DNA of 64,000 nucleotides from Eledone cirrhosa (taxonomy: Eukaryota), in NCBI GenBank assembly GCA_964016885.1, contig OZ024746.1:11656001-11720000 (forward strand), read 5' to 3'. The number at the start of each line of letters is the position of its first letter. The first letter of the stretch is position 1. The notes beneath the pieces are model-generated. The model did not search any database. It saw only the letters and a program-made list of their open reading frames with translations, and was not told the origin of the DNA. Shown in pieces: positions 35,944 through 54,610 of the stretch. The translations under genes and the position numbers were made by a program.

Positions 35944-37406
35944 TACGATTTGGGCATTAGTCCTTAACAAAAAAAAAAACAGACTAAGGAAGAAGTGGGG
36001 CGGGGAAATAAGAAAAACAGCAAAGGGAAGAATGATGGGCATTATTCAAAATGTGAGGAAGATGAAAATAACTGAAGGCTAGGTGAAAATGGTGTCTTCT
36101 CGGGTGGCTTTAGGACGAGGGGGAGGGGATCAATTTTATAGTGCTGGTGTACGGGTGAGAGAATATGTTCAAGTGAGAGGTGCATCGGCTGCATGTAGTG
36201 TGGCAAACTGGTCTCTATCAGGTATGTTGTGCAAATGTTTGTGTATAGTGATGCTGCTATGTGTGTGCTTGTGAATATAAGACGTGTATGTGTGCGCGAG
36301 ATTTTGATTTGTGTATTTTGTCCCGGAACTCTACCCGGAACCCATTTTGTATTACACTATGTGTATATATATATAGAGAGAGAGGGGAGGGGAGAGAGGA
36401 GAGGGGGGGCGTTAATTTTGAGTTGTAGGTTTATAGGTATATAAATAACAAACATCTACTAATGGAGTAACTACATATATATATATAAATAGTAGAGTCG
36501 TCTATATTATATGTACCAATGAACCAACACACACACAATTGAATTCCACAAATTGAAAAATACTTAATGTAGAATTAATGACATTAATTAATTGTTTCCC
36601 TTCAGATCATCGAAACGTTATAATTCATAATTTAGATAATCTATTTTCCTGGAAATATTTCTCAAATGTATTGCATTTTTAAGTTTTAATATGTACAATT
36701 TGAAGTGGAATTCAATAACAAAAACTCTGGAATGTCATCATAAACTAACATAATACTGTAAGCAAAGTTAATTTAATACTACTTTATTTGTTTTTTTAAT
36801 TTATAGCCGTTTAAATGAAGTTTAATATTTTTACAAGATAAAACGCGTCACTTAGAAGTTATCTATTTTTATAACTGTTCCCCCATAAACATTTTTTATC
36901 ATCCATTAAACAAATTTCCATTTAAAAAAAAAAAAGATTGTAAAATGATATAAAAACTCCATAGATAATGTGCTTGAGTGAAAGATATAGATAGAGTGAA
37001 AGAGAGAGCAACCTAGTGATTAAATTAATTGAAATTTAAAGATATTTATCAAAATATTAAAAACAAACGTACACTTGGGAGTAACCAAGATCGAGACCAA
37101 AACAGTGCAAAAACGTTTTAACTCAACGTATAATGCCCTCAACATGGTCTGCTTAGGAGAAAAACCCACGAAATAAAAATAAAAAGAAAGATAAATCCAA
37201 ACTGGCAATGTAATTGCAGCGAATTATTTTTACGTAGATAATCTAGTAGAAATTATATATATACGTTTGTTTAGCGAGCGAGTCCTGAGCAAAATATCAG
37301 GTTTCACTGGAGATAACTGAATATTTTAAGAATAGGAAAATACACAATAACTCGCTAATGATGCAGTAGATTATTTCTACTGGATTTCCAGTAGTTTATT
37401 TATACA

Positions 37407-37423
37407 TATGTGTGTGTGTGTGT

Positions 37424-37477
<54 letters not shown>

Positions 37478-37533
37478 GCATACACACACATTATTTATAT
37501 ATATATATATATATATACATGCATACACACACA

Positions 37534-37576
<43 letters not shown>
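37407..37576. repeat. (TG)n/(TA)n compound microsatellite
   Basis: Directly visible. Confidence 0.9.
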
Positions 37577-37580
<4 letters not shown>

Positions 37581-38456
37581 CAAACCACCTGTATAAAAAT
37601 CTAAACACTCCAAACCTAAGAAAACTGCCATGTTATTCAACTTAGATAATATTTCAAAAGGTTTCATCGAGTATCTCACGTGTAACAAAATCAACAAGTT
37701 CTATACACGCAAAAAATCGAGACAATCAAATTATTTGTGTGAAATTTTATAACTGAAATTACGGGGAAAAAAAAATAACAAAACGCCGCTACAAGGAAAA
37801 AATATAATAGAAAAAAAAATGGGGAGGAAAGGCGAAGAGAAAAAGACATGCATAGCATCAAACGATTACAAGAATAGATGTACGGGTTGTTTACGTCCAT
37901 AGATAACAGTTAAAATGACAATGTAACGTCAAACCGACGCTTCTGTTAACAAATTAGAGCGACCACAAAAATATTTGTTCGATCCTTGCTTACATCGATT
38001 GAATATAGGTCAGGTAAATGATCGGAGTTACTTCTATATGAATATAGTATAAATAACTTAATGACTGGAGACGAAACATGGGTGAATCACGAGTAGGGGG
38101 TGGAGTAGAATTACAACTTTGTCAAAACGGATTCCGTGCTCTTTGATTAACGATTTCTTAGAGGGGGTAACGAATCAGATCTGTGTGTACATTCTCCCTG
38201 GCCCTTTCGATCAATAATTACGAGTCAGGTAAACATCGAAAAAGATTACAACTCAGTCATTCCCACAGACACAACAGTTAATTTGAGATCTATAATCGAT
38301 TCGAAACGTGCGAGTTTTATTATATCCAATAGAAATAACAACAACAAAAAGATAATAAGTAAAAATGGGTGAAAAAATACACATGGAAGTTAGTGGTAGT
38401 AACTTCGTTTGACGAAACTACCAAAAAGATTTGTAATAAAAACTGGGGGATTTTAC

Positions 38457-38525
38457 CTTCTTTACGAAGCTTCATACAGTCATTATCATCTTTACCAATG
38501 TCACCACTTTTAGTATCGGTGCAAC
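38457..38525 (-). CDS. ATXN7: Ataxin-7 family protein, coding exon 2 (69 nt, phase 1-1)
   Basis: Acceptor tctgtttacttgtag| and donor AAG|GTAAAA. In frame with exon 1, giving (G)CTDTKSGDIGKDDNDCMKLRKE, similar to vertebrate GK.REVM.L..ED just before the first zinc finger. The next exon (DMxxFG..P..D.FYLVVC) was not found in the window. Confidence 0.85.
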
Positions 38526-38717
38526 CTACAAGTAAACAGACGATTAAAAGGTAATCACTTTTGGGACAACTAAAGACTTACTAAAGGATGTTGATATCGT
38601 TTTTAGTAAGTACTCCCAAAAAACCAATGTACATGTCTTTAAAAAGGCTGATCGGGAGTTTTAACTTTTCAAAATAGGCATACATCTTGTACGAAAGACA
38701 TTGATATTTAAACTCAC

Positions 38718-38805
38718 CGACATCATCCTTTAAAGGCACGTTTTCGGCCCAAACTGTCCAAGGCTGACCAGCGTATTTTGCAGGACTATCGCCTACAGTC
38801 GCCAT
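38718..38805 (-). CDS. ATXN7: Ataxin-7 family protein (ATXN7/ATXN7L, Sgf73 homolog), coding exon 1
   Basis: aaaATGGCG start. Translates to MATVGDSPAKYAGQPWTVWAENVPLKDDV, matching the ATXN7/ATXN7L1 N-terminal motif MAT...SP...G(Q/K)(P/S)WxxW. Ends in a phase-1 donor G|GTGAGT (intron starts at 38717). Confidence 0.88.
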
Positions 38806-39306
38806 TTTACATGTTTCTTGTTGCATTTCGGAAAGCTGCGGACACTGCCGAGCATGACGTCATATTCGCCCTCTTTCGACAACTCCTCCGAATCTTTTAG
38901 TCGCTTAAATCATTAATAATAGATAATAAATGGTTTATTATCATACTTTCTCGCTGTTTGTTTATATTTATCATAATTATGTATATATATATTAAAACTA
39001 CGATAAAAGTACGCGATTCTTGCTGCAAATTAAAATATAATATAGTTTTGTTTACGGGTTGGTTGATATATTTATGTATGCAGGTTTCCGTGTACATGCA
39101 TGTATGCACGTGCTAACTCGTGTGTACCTTTTATTCTCTCATCATACATAGCACCATTATACAAATAAATCTGAAGTTTATGCATTCCTTTTAACGAATA
39201 TTTGTACAATTTTACCAGCAATTGTTGTGAATGATCGCCTAAGGATCTGTGTGTTTGTATTGAAATATTTTTATTCTTGAAAGCTTAAGCGACTTATGTT
39301 TATAAA
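38806..39306. promoter_or_regulatory. Bidirectional promoter and 5' UTRs shared by ATXN7 and THOC7
   Basis: 501 nt between divergent ATGs, CpG-retaining. Contains CRE palindrome ATGACGTCAT (38854-38863) and E-box GCACGTGC (39106-39113). YY1-like AAAATGGCG overlaps both start codons. Confidence 0.7.
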
Positions 39307-39322
39307 ATGGCGGTTACAGACG
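39307..39322 (+). CDS. THOC7: THO complex subunit 7 homolog, coding exon 1 (MAVTD, phase-1 intron)
   Basis: aaaATGGCGGTTACAGACG|GTAAGT has a perfect donor. The peptide matches the human THOC7 start MGAVTDDEVIRKRLL, and the gene is divergent from ATXN7 as in human. Only 5 codons are visible and exon 2 was not found in the window. Confidence 0.72.
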
Positions 39323-42300
39323 GTAAGTCACATGCATGAGGCATGACTTTCATAAATATTTTGGTTAAACTATAATTTTACAGGCATTTATTTTCCAAAC
39401 TAAGAATTATGTAACATTTTGAAATTACTTTTTACTATATTTACCTTTCGTTTATATGTTTTATTGTTTATAAACATTGCCATAATTCTAGTTGTCATAG
39501 TCGGAGAGGCCGGTTTATATGACAATATATAGCAATGCAACTAAGAATTTTTCGTATTATTAAATTTATCTTGATGACTTTAAGAGTGTCGGTTGATTAT
39601 TTAGTCTCTAAACCTTGGACCAAGATAGAATTTTAAAGAAATCATCAAGACAACACCGTGCATCCCAAGACGCTTAATAGATTTTGTTTGTTTTATAAAA
39701 CAATATATATATATATAAATTCTTGTTGCTCTTGTCGATATTTTCTAACACCTCTTACTCATTTATTTAAATACTACTTTAATTTCAAAATGATTTTATA
39801 TGTTTAATTCTTCGCAACATCACTTTGCATCTTTTTCATAGCATATACTTCACTTGTTTAGCCGCCGATGAGATCTGATTCAACAGATCCATAGAGACGT
39901 TCCAGTCGTGACCAGTCTGTCTGTTTTTAAACATAGTTTATTTAGAGTTGCATTATTCAATTAGTCCTTCCTATTTTAAGACTGATTTAAAGGAGATGAG
40001 ACTGTCATTTTTAGAACATCGAGCGACTGTGTGCGTGCTCTCTTGGCTCCGTATATACATGTCCGGTGATTATTTAGTCTCGCTAGTAAAATGAAAATAT
40101 ATTACTTTCATTTTAACTTAGTATAAAAGCTTTCACTTTTGATTACCGATAACTATTAGGGTGATATATATATATAAAGAGAGAGAGGAGGGCATATGAA
40201 AAGAAAAACATCTTTATTTACGCATGAATGAAATTTGTTCGTTTCGGTAATTCAATAAAATCAAGTTAATTTGTTTTGCGTTATCGTCAAGATTACTATA
40301 TTTTTGTAGTATTATGGGTACAATTTCTCACTGACTGACCAGTTTCATCTGACGGGTGCACACAGCCCGATGATTCTCCACTGTTATGAAACTGGTCAGT
40401 CACTGAAACATTGGACTACTTTAAACCCACAATAAAAATTCATAATCTGTGTATTGAATTTTCTTTCTTAGATTGGTTGCATTTACCAGTATTATTATTA
40501 CGAATTTAAATCCTGCCGTGGTTAGCTTTGCCTTTCTTCCTTACATGGTCGATAAAAAAAAAATACCAGTAATGCACTGAGGTCGATTTAATCGACCCCC
40601 CCCCCCCTAGTTGTTAGCCTTGTGCCTAAATCAGAAACCATTATTGTGTGTGTGTAATTGTGTATATTAACTGCAATTCTGTAAAAACAAATCTTACAAA
40701 AAATCCCAAATAAAAAATTTAAAACTTGAACAGTCGTATTTTTAATATATATATATGTGTGTGTGTGTGGTGAACAATTAGATGGGTTCAGATATTTAAA
40801 AGACTTAATATAGGAATTAACATTTGAAAGTTAATACGTCTTTCTCTGTCAACTTATTTAATGAAACTGAAAGCTTCTAATGGCAAACCAAAATGAGTCT
40901 CGGGGTTTTCATTCATTTTACGTACCTAAACTGAACAATTACCCTAAGTTTTGAAAGCTGAAAGAATCTAGTCCATTAGCTCATTATATTATTACTGTTA
41001 CCTATTTTATTGATTCCTTGAGGAATTTCAACTCTGAGTTTCAGGGAATTCACTATATTGTCAACATCTATTTCCTGTTGTACTTGTTAACACACTGAGT
41101 AACGACTAACTTATTCTCTGTTGAATAAAGCAGTTCACTTCTATAAACATTGTTTATATGTTGTCGGCATTGTTTTGCCAGTGCATCTATCAATTATGTT
41201 GACAGAGTCGTGGAAACGTCTGATTGAATGCCTTCCGATATTCATTCCTTCCCTTTTCGCTCTAACCCTTTCTGGAGACGATAGGGTACCAGTTCAGGAG
41301 TGGAGATGAATTCGTCTCTTTCCTCCTTACTCTCTCTCTCTCTCTCTCGCCGAATTGTCTACGTTATGCTGTGAGAGGGACCGTGGAGGGCCACTGACAG
41401 CATCCTTTTCTTCCAAAATGGGAAGAAGAAAAAATGAACGAGGGTTCTGCAAGGTCCTCATAGGGAAACCGATAAACTACTGAAACCGTCCAAGGGTTGT
41501 CCGATGTTCAGTAAACTCTACGGAACCGAAGTAAAAAAAAGAGATCAATTTTGACAACTTTGCTAGCCGTAGTTACCTTTCTTTAATTTTCCTTAATCAT
41601 TCATGGCAATATTGTGTTTTATGTATATTACATTATATTTTATTTTCCTTCATACGTATCAAATTAATGAACCAACCAACAGCAAAGTTGGTAATATTTA
41701 TAGTTGACATTAATAAAAACTATTCTGAAATACATTTTGGTTTCTGTTTACACTTACCAAACCTTTCATCTGTTCACTAAAAGAATATGTATATATATAT
41801 ATACCATTAAGACTTCCTATTGGAGTGTTTGTTATTTGTGAATATGTGTGGGTGATCCTTTGCTAATATACATCAGTATATACACTAATAAAAACATACA
41901 AAACTGTTGCAGCTACGTTCTTCAACCATTTCAAAATTATTTAGGCTTTATAATAACTTTACTTTCGTTCGGATTCCCCAATCATCCAATCTAAAATAAT
42001 TTCTATATGTTTATTAACTTTTAAGAATCGGTGTAGTTTTCGTTTACTGTTCTATCGAAAGTAAGCAAGGGAGATTAGTGGAATATAACCATTGTTTGGA
42101 TTTCTGTGTTTCAAAGGAATATGTATTTACTTGTAACAACTCGTGGCGATGATAAATAAATAGCCGTAAAATAACAAACAACTAGATTGGTGTTGAGCGA
42201 CAAGCAGACACTGATCGAGCCGACCTGTGATCAAATGCTTTCCTGTTGTGACCATCACATTGACTATATTGTCGATTGCGCCCTTTTTATAAAAGGTGAC

Positions 42301-47050: not shown

Positions 47051-48329
47051 GCTACCAGTACAGGCTCTGCTGCCCGCCAAGCTGAGAACTATTAATTCAT
47101 GAGTCTTCTTATTGTTGGGTGTATTGGTATTTCATTCAATATATACACAATGTACACTCTTCTTTCCAAGTTTGGATTCCTCTCAACTAACATTCTTTTG
47201 GCTAAAATTCCTTCCTTGAGATCCAAGTGACTCCTGTTTGAGAATCATTACCCTACAGTCATCTATATCTTCACACATATGATAATGGCGGTTGTGGTAG
47301 CAGAAATGGTTATGTTGTTGGTATGGATAGATCAGAATTTCTGGTTTATTTTGTTGTCTCTGAACAAATGTATTAATTTTACTTGCCATAGTCAAACTAA
47401 CTAGAGAATAGATCCACAGTTATAGATCTGCATTTACTAGGACTCCATTTCTCTTTGTTTAATAATATTATAGTAATCAGTTTCAAAGCATTAAGTTTTT
47501 TATGAGTGTTTGTGTTCCATGGAATGATAAAATATTTAATTTAATATAAATATAGTCCTGACTCAGTCTGTGATAACCCATTGCTAGCAAAAAAAATGTG
47601 ATAACCCTTACTAGCAAAAAAAATGGAATTAAATGATGATGATTTATCAAAAATTAAAAATATAATCGCATTAAGTAAAAAGAATTGTTCTACTCAGAAA
47701 AAGGCCATTAACAACCCATGGCTATGTCCATGAAAATCTTATACATGAATAATATCAGGTGTAGCTCATGATAATATAATATCAACATGGGGAAGAGAGA
47801 GAGAATGAGATATACTATCATCTTAAAATGGTTATATTCAAATGTCAGCCATTTCAGAATAGAAAATTAATGTCATCATTTGCTCCAATTCTTGACATTA
47901 AGTTTACAGTTGATAGTAACATTTCTCTAGCTTTCTATCAGTATCATCATCATCATCATTATTATTAACATCATCATCATCTTCATTAAAAGTATCATTA
48001 TCCATCATTCAGTTTCCATTTTTCCATACATGCGTGGATTAGGTGAGTGTTACTTTACAGTAGCTATCCATATAGTCCAATCCTATGATCTTCCCACTAA
48101 GAAGCTCAATGTACTCATATTTGATTGAGTTACGTTATTTCTGAGCCTTCATTAATCTATCTCTCTAATTACATGTACAGTACATCATTAACTATGACAC
48201 TTTTTTCCCTTACAACTAGCTTGCATATCCATTCACATTATGTCTAAACCAGTATAAATGTTCAGGTACTGGATTCAATATAAAATCAACTATACCCTCC
48301 TACAAGGTTCAATGGCCATGATCCTCATT

Positions 48330-48600
48330 ATTATTATTTTTATATTGCATGTCATCATTGCATTGCCTAGTAGTGTTATTTTCTGTATGTTGTATATATT
48401 TGTAAGTCCTGGGGTTTCAGTTACGTATCTGTCTGTGTTTTTTATCATTCGCAATGTTTCTGTTTTGATCATCCACATTTGAGTCATTTCCGTCTCCAGA
48501 TCTTTATATTTGGGTAATTTCTTCATTTCCTTGATAGACGTATTGTTATCTGTGGGGATTATAGAATTGTTTTTACATCTGCTTTTCCTTGCTGACATGG
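48330..48600 (-). mobile_element. R4/Dong-like LINE C-terminal (restriction-like endonuclease) remnant
   Basis: IPTDNNTSIKEMKKLPKYKDLETEMTQMW...IQKITLLGNA. Confidence 0.75.
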
Positions 48601-48719
48601 GTTGATCATTTCTTCCTGACACCAACCCTTTTAGTTGCCTCTAATGATACATAGAATGCAATGTACCTATTGTAAAAGCCAGGATGTAGAGTGCCAGGCA
48701 AAATGATTTGCAATATTTT

Positions 48720-53521: not shown

Positions 53522-54258
53522 AGTAAGGTAATGTTGTGAAAGAGGCAGTAAAGCAACCGAAGTAGATATTTTGGAGTGTTTAGTTTTTTATGTACAAAGT
53601 TCAACTGCCACATTGGATGTCATTGCATTTCATCTATCTGGGTTCAACATTGTTAAATTTTTCCTTACCATATTTCTAATGAAAGATAACATCTATGATT
53701 TTCAAATCATTTTTAAAATAAGAATTTTGTGGGATTTAGTTATATAACTTTCTCATTATTAAGCTGGTGTTTGGAAGATAATTTAACAAAAGTTCCTACA
53801 TAAAATTATGATAGAAGGTTTTTAGATAAATATATACACTTTAGAATAAATATATTAGAATCATCGAATTAGGTAGTTTCATATAAAAAGGGTTAACCTT
53901 GTAACAATTTAAGAAATCATTATTGGAAGAATTGGTAGAGCATTGGACAAAATGTCTTGTGGTATTTAGTTACGGCTCTTTATGCTCTGCATTCAAATCT
54001 CGCTAAAGTTAACTTTGCCTTTCATTCTTTCAGGGTCGGTATAATATAGTACCAGTCAACTAATGGGGTTGATTTAATTGATTTTCCCCTCCTTTCCACC
54101 TAAATAGTTAGCAGTGCCTAAATCAGAAACCGCTATTATTATTATTGTTCATTTTTGTAAATCTCAGACACTTAGATGTTAAACAATCTGGATATTTCAG
54201 TTAGGGAGCAGTCAAAAACAAATTGACAAAGGTCCCTCACTGCATTCTTTCCTATACC

Positions 54259-54610
54259 TTACGTAGACAAGAGTTTTTTTAAAATCCTTGCTGTACCAAA
54301 AAGTGCTGTCTTCTGCATGACCTGTAACCTTGCACCAATTCTGATTCTATTTACGAAATCCTCAAAACTGTCCAATATGCATCTCAATACTCCGATCACC
54401 ACTGGAATCACTAAAACCTTCTTCTTCCCCAACTTTACAACCTCCTCCTTCAGTGGCTTATACTTCCCCATCTTTTCAAGCTCTTTATTCTTCACTCTAC
54501 TATCTCCTATAATAGATATATCAATAATTTGGGCCTCTTTTTCTTCTTGTTCATAACTAAAATGTCTGGCCTTCTTGCCTCAATGGTAAAGTCCCACAAA
54601 AGCTTATTGT
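54259..54610 (-). mobile_element. R4/Dong-like LINE C-terminal remnant
   Basis: KLLWDFTI..RRPDILV...IIDI...KELEKMGKYKPL...VIPVVIGVL...MQKTALFGTARILKK, containing the RLE PD..D..K motif. Confidence 0.8.

Follow-up and report, generated by a model that had tools for sequence, protein, structure and literature searches.

The window analysed here is a stretch of 64,000 nucleotides (nt) from the octopus Eledone cirrhosa (contig OZ024746.1, here C6; G000:C6:11656001-11720000, in a 3.0-Gb genome), which carries the first exons of two diverging genes, ataxin-7 on the minus strand (ATG at 38805) and THOC7 on the plus strand (ATG at 39307). Inspection of the sequence places 501 nt between the two start codons, and the head-to-head arrangement of ATXN7 and THOC7 proposed in a preliminary description of this DNA is confirmed at the locus. 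Transcript evidence was drawn from assembled contigs of sequencing runs from related species, which are presumed to be RNA with none recorded as such, and the contig species differ from this octopus at 8-11 positions in the 122-nt exon 2 of THOC7.

Exon structure and identity of the two genes

The first coding exon of ataxin-7 (38718-38805, minus) is 88 nt long (29 codons plus 1 nt), is covered by contigs in all four runs and encodes an N-terminus that aligns with invertebrate ataxin-7 proteins. It is spliced to a second exon of 69 nt (38457-38525, minus), seen in the sequence and the contigs, with the 192-nt GT..AG intron 1 (38526-38717, minus) skipped in contigs of 4/4 runs. From the donor GT at 38456 intron 2 extends for 68,357 nt, its in-window part filling positions 1-38456 (minus), and in runs X4 and X8 (two of the four) the loose end past exon 2 corresponds to the start of exon 3, 68,357 nt away and beyond the window. 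Exon 3 at G000:C6:11626099 carries the first zinc finger, matching residues 132-165 of human ataxin-7 (E=1.1e-9), while exons for the SCA7 domain (PF08313) lie on the same strand at C6:11542024 and 11539386 (approximately C6:11.54 Mb). This domain matched ataxin-7 (2KKR) with E=6.7e-8 compared with E=1.8 for ATXN7L3 (2KKT), and an Sgf11-family gene was found on a separate contig, C4. Judged by these sequence features, the minus-strand gene is the orthologue of ataxin-7/Sgf73 and not of ATXN7L3/Sgf11.

A tree built from 19 proteins grouped the six vertebrate rows in one clade (100/99) and left the invertebrate branches without resolution, and because the vertebrate rows cluster together the octopus gene is regarded as the single pro-orthologue of ATXN7, ATXN7L1 and ATXN7L2. 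Given this orthology and the role described for the SAGA subunit (PMC8080568), octopus ataxin-7 would anchor the deubiquitinase module in SAGA. No polyglutamine tract was found in its N-terminus. An in-frame upstream ATG at 38826 (minus) would add seven residues; the O. bimaculoides RefSeq model begins at the equivalent of this codon and other invertebrate proteins at the equivalent of 38805. At the other end of the protein, the exon following the SCA7 domain (L026:3090-3386 minus, G000:C6:11539090-11539386) continues into a long glycine/serine repeat.

THOC7 starts with a coding exon of only 16 nt (39307-39322, plus), comprising the five codons MAVTD plus 1 nt and a donor GTAAGT at 39323, which is seen in contigs and encodes an N-terminus shared by named octopod THOC7 proteins. 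Intron 1 is approximately 49.6 kb long (in-window part 39323-64000, plus) with exon 2 at G000:C6:11744950 and the last coding exon at C6:11767360; a motif scan of the 64-kb window found neither THOC7 exon 2 onward nor later ataxin-7 exons. A tblastn search with the named Octopus vulgaris THOC7 identified seven ordered plus-strand exons from C6:11744950 to 11767392, with 82-100% identity in the cores of six of the seven segments (69-100% for the raw alignments, intron run-on included). A profile search of the genome with PF05615 gave zero matches at the default cut-off and six at E<=10, of which three are the C6 plus-strand exons downstream of the window (E 0.0016-0.58) and the other three, elsewhere in the genome, are weak and unrelated (E>2); exon 2 itself scores above the Pfam cut-off. 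Because every match with E below 1 falls on this contig, a short way downstream, a THOC7 gene elsewhere in the genome is ruled against, and zinc finger, SCA7 domain, PF05615 and the tblastn exon series together bear out both identities given in the preliminary description.

The same description had read the 39323 donor as that of THOC7, and in related octopods this donor is used and joins the exon encoding DDIIRRRLL. The X8 contig departs from the window at 39322 and resumes at the start of the C6:11744950 exon, while the X4 contig ties that exon back to the MAVTD exon, so that the joint is present in two of six runs, from two studies, with an alternative first exon in none. The remaining four runs fall short of the joint, the contigs of X1, X9 and X13 beginning at exon 2, and X1, X3 and X4 have no piece on the first exon at 85% identity. 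The plus-strand gene is THOC7, its 16-nt exon joined to exon 2; because the contigs come from related species, use of the joint in E. cirrhosa itself is presumed. For the alternative N-termini given in two RefSeq models of octopus THOC7, intron 1 offered no convincing match.

Two metagenome contigs from another animal (L092:93 and L094:269) carry a five-codon THOC7 first exon, MAVSE, with an identical phase-1 intron, and stop 92 and 268 nt upstream of it. Approximately 2.6 kb beyond the THOC7 stop, on the opposite strand, lies a 568-codon frame with many C2H2 zinc fingers (L014:3-1706 minus, G000:C6:11770003-11771706). Both large introns contain fragments that resemble open frames of long interspersed element (LINE)/Penelope-type retroelements (L016:7047 minus; L010:1640 minus; window positions ~54200-54600 and 48300-48640).

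The spacer and its putative promoter

The 501 nt between the start codons (38806-39306) hold both 5′ leaders and a putative shared promoter, with contig cover from either side. Next to ataxin-7 a non-coding block (38806-38907) is kept in related octopods, with at most one difference in X4 and two in X8, and contains at 38855-38862 the palindrome TGACGTCA, which we take to be of cAMP response element (CRE) type. In X4 the single difference at most in these 102 nt compares with 11 in the 122 nt of THOC7 exon 2 (Fisher p=0.007), a comparison that is slightly favourable because the alignment sets the edge of the block. The AT-rich (77%) middle of the spacer (38908-39083) gave no alignment to relatives at 85% and probably holds or flanks both transcription starts. 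Beyond it a short conserved block (39084-39118; run X8, one difference in 35 nt) includes CACGTG at 39107-39112, presumably an E-box type palindrome, and the part of the THOC7 leader that adjoins the ATG (39248-39306, plus) is represented by an X8 contig piece (39248-39322) and an X4 loose end (39292-39321).

The spacer of 0.5 kb, flanked by introns of 68.4 and 49.6 kb, lies in a zone around both first exons (37001-40500) that has retained CpG, with observed/expected ratios of 1.02-1.63 across seven consecutive 500-nt bins compared with 0.34 for the whole window. Both start codons are surrounded by the word AAAATGGCG (38800-38808, minus; 39304-39312, plus), of which these are the only two copies in the 264 kb read; two copies were reached in 2/100 shuffles of the window, and the Met-Ala start shared by the proteins fixes part of the word. 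We take it to resemble a YY1 site or a translation initiator of short 5′ UTR (TISU) element. Contexts similar to AAAATGGCG also precede the THOC7 micro-exon in the metagenome loci L092 and L094.

If their loose ends are colinear with the window, contigs reach to ~38920-38990 from the ataxin-7 side and to ~38910-39100 from the THOC7 side, which hints that the two transcription starts may lie within 100 nt of each other or overlap. The genes are head-to-head with starts placed less than 1 kb apart by the 501-nt codon gap and the contigs entering it, and shared cis-elements may drive both directions, as has been reported for the human pair. The shared promoter of about 500 nt put forward in the preliminary description holds as a spacing of start codons but not as a promoter length, because contigs cover much of the spacer and the start sites must be nearer than 501 nt. 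Either gene may have an additional non-coding exon farther upstream.

Linkage of the pair in other animals

The human head-to-head pair to which the locus had been likened is borne out in the literature, with THOC7-ATXN7 reported among 864 human divergent pairs with start sites 654 bp apart (PMC3815023). The two genes have been described as sharing a bidirectional promoter, and CRISPR interference (CRISPRi) aimed at the ATXN7 promoter represses THOC7 as well, a gene classed as common essential in human cells (PMC10053147); a single CpG-island probe maps to both human promoters (PMC5391602). The order psmd6, atxn7, thoc7 is reported to be retained in gar, eel and arowana, with a duplicate atxn7 kept in eel and arowana for which a second thoc7 was not found (PMC5645911).

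Outside octopus and vertebrates adjacency was judged by proxy from database gene identifiers (ids), which were assumed to follow chromosome order. The survey drew on 120 of 403 THOC7 matches, 120 of 134 ataxin-7 matches and 30 cluster look-ups, all results applying to the matches listed, and both genes could be compared in 33 invertebrate species, Biomphalaria, for which contig data were lacking, and two hybrid amphioxus assemblies being left out. Ids were consecutive or two apart in ten of the 33 (Batillaria, Nucella, Patella caerulea, Pomacea, four Mytilus species, Lingula and Owenia), 8 apart in the hemichordate Ptychodera and 11 apart in M. trossulus. A contig of equal size was recorded for both genes in 30/33 species, among which Lingula (367 kb), Ylistrum (499 kb) and Saccostrea cucullata (627 kb) have them on small scaffolds; in Candidula and Plakobranchus THOC7 and ataxin-7 are on separate, short scaffolds. 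Distant RefSeq XP numbers (Glandiceps, Lineus, Tubulanus, Liolophura, Patella vulgata) were considered as signs of separation and rejected, because those of P. vulgata are 496 apart while the ids of its congener P. caerulea are consecutive. The ids of Pinctada, Ostrea and Dreissena gave no reading, nor did those of the remaining species surveyed. The deep age claimed for the linkage thus stands, with near-adjacent ids in gastropods, mussels, a brachiopod and an annelid and close ones in a hemichordate.

BLAST and profile searches of 64 metagenome THOC7 loci, with exon 1 from the window as positive control, found ataxin-7 in none, nearly all of these loci ending too near THOC7. The only informative one, L043, which from its sequence we take to be insect, has 10 kb of upstream DNA in which ataxin-7 is absent and a same-strand spectrin gene ends 2.5 kb upstream of THOC7. 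This neighbour (L043:42-7490) is large and encodes spectrin repeats together with a PH domain. In L050 a suspected spectrin neighbour did not hold up, and DNA resembling retroelements is present in L047 and L048.

The wider neighbourhood of the octopus pair differs from that in human. RPN7-family genes were found on C10 and C19 and not on C6, so the vertebrate link of ATXN7 to PSMD6 is absent. No MARVEL-family (synaptoporin-like) genes were found on C6; SYNPR, we assume, lies near THOC7-ATXN7 in human. On the ATXN7 side POLR1C/RPAC1 lies at L096 (G000:C6:11388015-11388356, plus), ~140 kb past the 3′ end of ataxin-7, a placement that fits a cephalopod-specific block of a SCA7-domain gene, an unannotated gene and an Rpb3-family gene reported in Euprymna and O. 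bimaculoides (PMC9023564). Because the neighbours on the ATXN7 side differ from those in human, we infer that the pair moved as a unit into a new neighbourhood, and with distal neighbours changed and the pair intact its proposed survival through cephalopod rearrangement is upheld.

Explanations for the pair and comparison with known systems

The pair is a real, ancient, patchily kept head-to-head pair, about 550 million years old, without a new mechanism. We regard it as reasonably probable that its core is a housekeeping bidirectional promoter as old as the Bilateria and hard to break. One region of open chromatin would fire both ways, aided by palindromic sites that work in either orientation, and an insertion or breakpoint inside it would harm two broadly needed genes together. 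It is proposed that because breakage would hit both genes the short spacer is kept and the genes rearrange together. The constraint would then be promoter sharing rather than matching of SAGA to THO levels, and the pair could be split, as it apparently was in some cases, in lineages where the two genes acquired separate promoters. Among ancient pairs the head-to-head share is reported to be 54.8% in human and 68.6% in Lottia (PMC3514665).

Several observations weigh against a shared promoter of this age. The contigs carry neither strand nor expression level, and the ids reveal neither strand nor distance, orientation being known for octopus and human only. The palindrome TGACGTCA alone is not above chance, being present in 28/100 shuffles of the window. 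A long THOC7 leader of the kind that X8 suggests would contain 10 upstream ATGs in this genome, so the true leaders may be shorter than the contigs imply. In amphioxus the ids are 21 apart in Branchiostoma belcheri and 52 in B. lanceolatum, on the same contig, and in the unionid bivalve Sinanodonta the tags are 1,854 apart; because these lie so far apart the constraint on the pair is not absolute. Adjacency was not seen in any cnidarian or sponge: in the coral Acropora millepora ATXN7 is reported in block 908 with a gene labelled SYNPR, and THOC7 is not among the 12 genes listed for the block, a weak negative as the available part of the table gives shared genes only (PMC8851819).

The apparent splits in amphioxus, Sinanodonta and contig L043 would also be expected had an ancestral pair with two independent, adjacent promoters simply persisted neutrally, a 0.5-kb gap being a tiny target for breakpoints. 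A gap of only 501 nt within a 3.0-Gb genome and a spacer made up of two separate conserved blocks around a diverged middle agree with such persistence. It leaves unexplained why the gap stayed short beside repeat-rich introns of 50-68 kb, and in human silencing of one promoter hits both genes, although spread of CRISPRi over 654 bp would do likewise. On balance we think neutral persistence rather unlikely.

The preliminary description had gone further and proposed co-regulation of two machines that act between transcription and export. On this reading the shared promoter would keep production of a THO subunit in step with that of the protein anchoring the SAGA deubiquitinase, and so tie H2B deubiquitination to mRNA packaging and export. 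Both proteins do work between transcription and export. TREX-2 and THO/TREX are, however, different complexes. Yeast Sgf73 is reported to be required for TREX-2 recruitment and to contribute to surveillance of messenger ribonucleoproteins, but what is documented for Sgf73/ataxin-7 is a connection to TREX-2 via Sus1/ENY2 and not to THO/TREX, and the word THO is absent from the available text of that SAGA review (PMC8080568). Ancient pairs are on average more co-expressed than matched neighbours (PMC3514665), while human divergent partners are reported to be no more alike in the biological processes they serve than randomly paired genes (p=0.062; PMC3815023). The second atxn7 of eel and arowana stands without thoc7 and the pair appears to be broken in amphioxus, the unionid bivalve and the insect-like contig. 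The claim of co-regulation is not supported, and functional coupling seems quite improbable as the reason for retention. Equally doubtful is its strongest form, a promoter unit of more than 550 million years that couples the SAGA anchor encoded by the SCA7 gene to THO, has abutting or overlapping starts in octopods and entered its new cephalopod-specific surroundings undivided because balanced output of the two proteins matters.

Independent pairing of the genes in vertebrates and spiralians would suit the lack of direct adjacency in amphioxus, which stands between the two groups, and the fact that orientation is established for octopus and human alone, but is highly improbable since ids 21-52 apart on one amphioxus contig and 8 apart in the hemichordate fit an ancestral pair loosened locally, and it is improbable that octopus and human would by chance agree in orientation and come close in spacing.

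Returning to the shared housekeeping promoter, the octopus locus resembles human 3p14 in having the same two families, head-to-head and less than 1 kb apart (654 bp in human, 501 nt in octopus), in CpG-rich DNA, and in a THOC7 that begins with a very short N-terminal segment followed by the conserved D-[ED]-[VI]-I-R motif. It differs in having one pro-orthologue for vertebrate ATXN7, ATXN7L1 and ATXN7L2, an ataxin-7 without the vertebrate N-terminal extension and no linkage to PSMD6. At its CAG repeat human ATXN7 has in addition a second promoter and an antisense RNA, SCAANT1, and the comparison with octopus concerns the THOC7-side promoter. The octopus pair suggests that the SCA7 gene was ancestrally driven from the promoter shared with THOC7 and that the repeat-proximal promoter and SCAANT1 would be later additions.

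In the literature on THOC7/ATXN7 and synteny we found no report of the pair outside vertebrates, and the searched supplements of synteny and promoter papers, as available, contained no THOC7 row, some tables possibly using other ids. Such pairs escape open reading frame tracks and synteny catalogues based on blocks of at least three genes when, as here, the first exon has only 16 nt and precedes a 50-kb intron. A total of 595 ancient non-paralogous pairs have been described, 593 of them at the base of Bilateria and mostly head-to-head (Irimia et al. 2012, PMC3514665), a list that may include this pair. The two genes are non-paralogous and at most four genes apart in at least four major lineages (vertebrates, molluscs, a brachiopod and an annelid), as in these conserved ancestral microsyntenic pairs (CAMPs), with the lineages differing from the set used in that paper and adjacency beyond octopus and vertebrates read by proxy from id order. 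Like HSPE1-HSPD1, a co-regulated head-to-head CAMP in the same study, they are unrelated genes whose tight linkage recurs in several major lineages, the head-to-head arrangement and short gap being known from octopus and human; HSPE1-HSPD1 encodes two parts of one machine and is highly co-expressed, whereas ATXN7-THOC7 is known here from gene arrangement.

Bidirectional promoters of housekeeping genes are likewise a feature of the ancestral chordate, with 25% of neighbouring genes in amphioxus reported to be on such promoters, with frequent loss following genome duplication (Marletaz et al. 2018, PMC6292497). The reported losses are 54.5% in vertebrates and 5.3% in amphioxus (PMC6292497), so ATXN7-THOC7, kept in vertebrates and lost in amphioxus, would apparently be the rarer case. 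Ancient linkages retained in coleoids have also been catalogued, with 275 such blocks in Euprymna (Schmidbaur et al. 2022, PMC9023564); THOC7 terms had no match in the table available from that study. Since ancient pairs have been published by the hundred, most of them head-to-head, together with the 275 squid blocks, retention of this pair is unsurprising; it probably belongs to a set of several hundred ordinary ancient pairs with shared promoters and is not a dedicated link between two export machines. It provides a well-supported example of a gene pair surviving deep time and the reshuffling of the coleoid genome as a unit. In the coleoid table the SCA7-domain gene appears only in the cephalopod-specific block with an Rpb3-family gene (PMC9023564), whereas the octopus locus would unite an ancient 5′ neighbour with a new 3′ neighbourhood.

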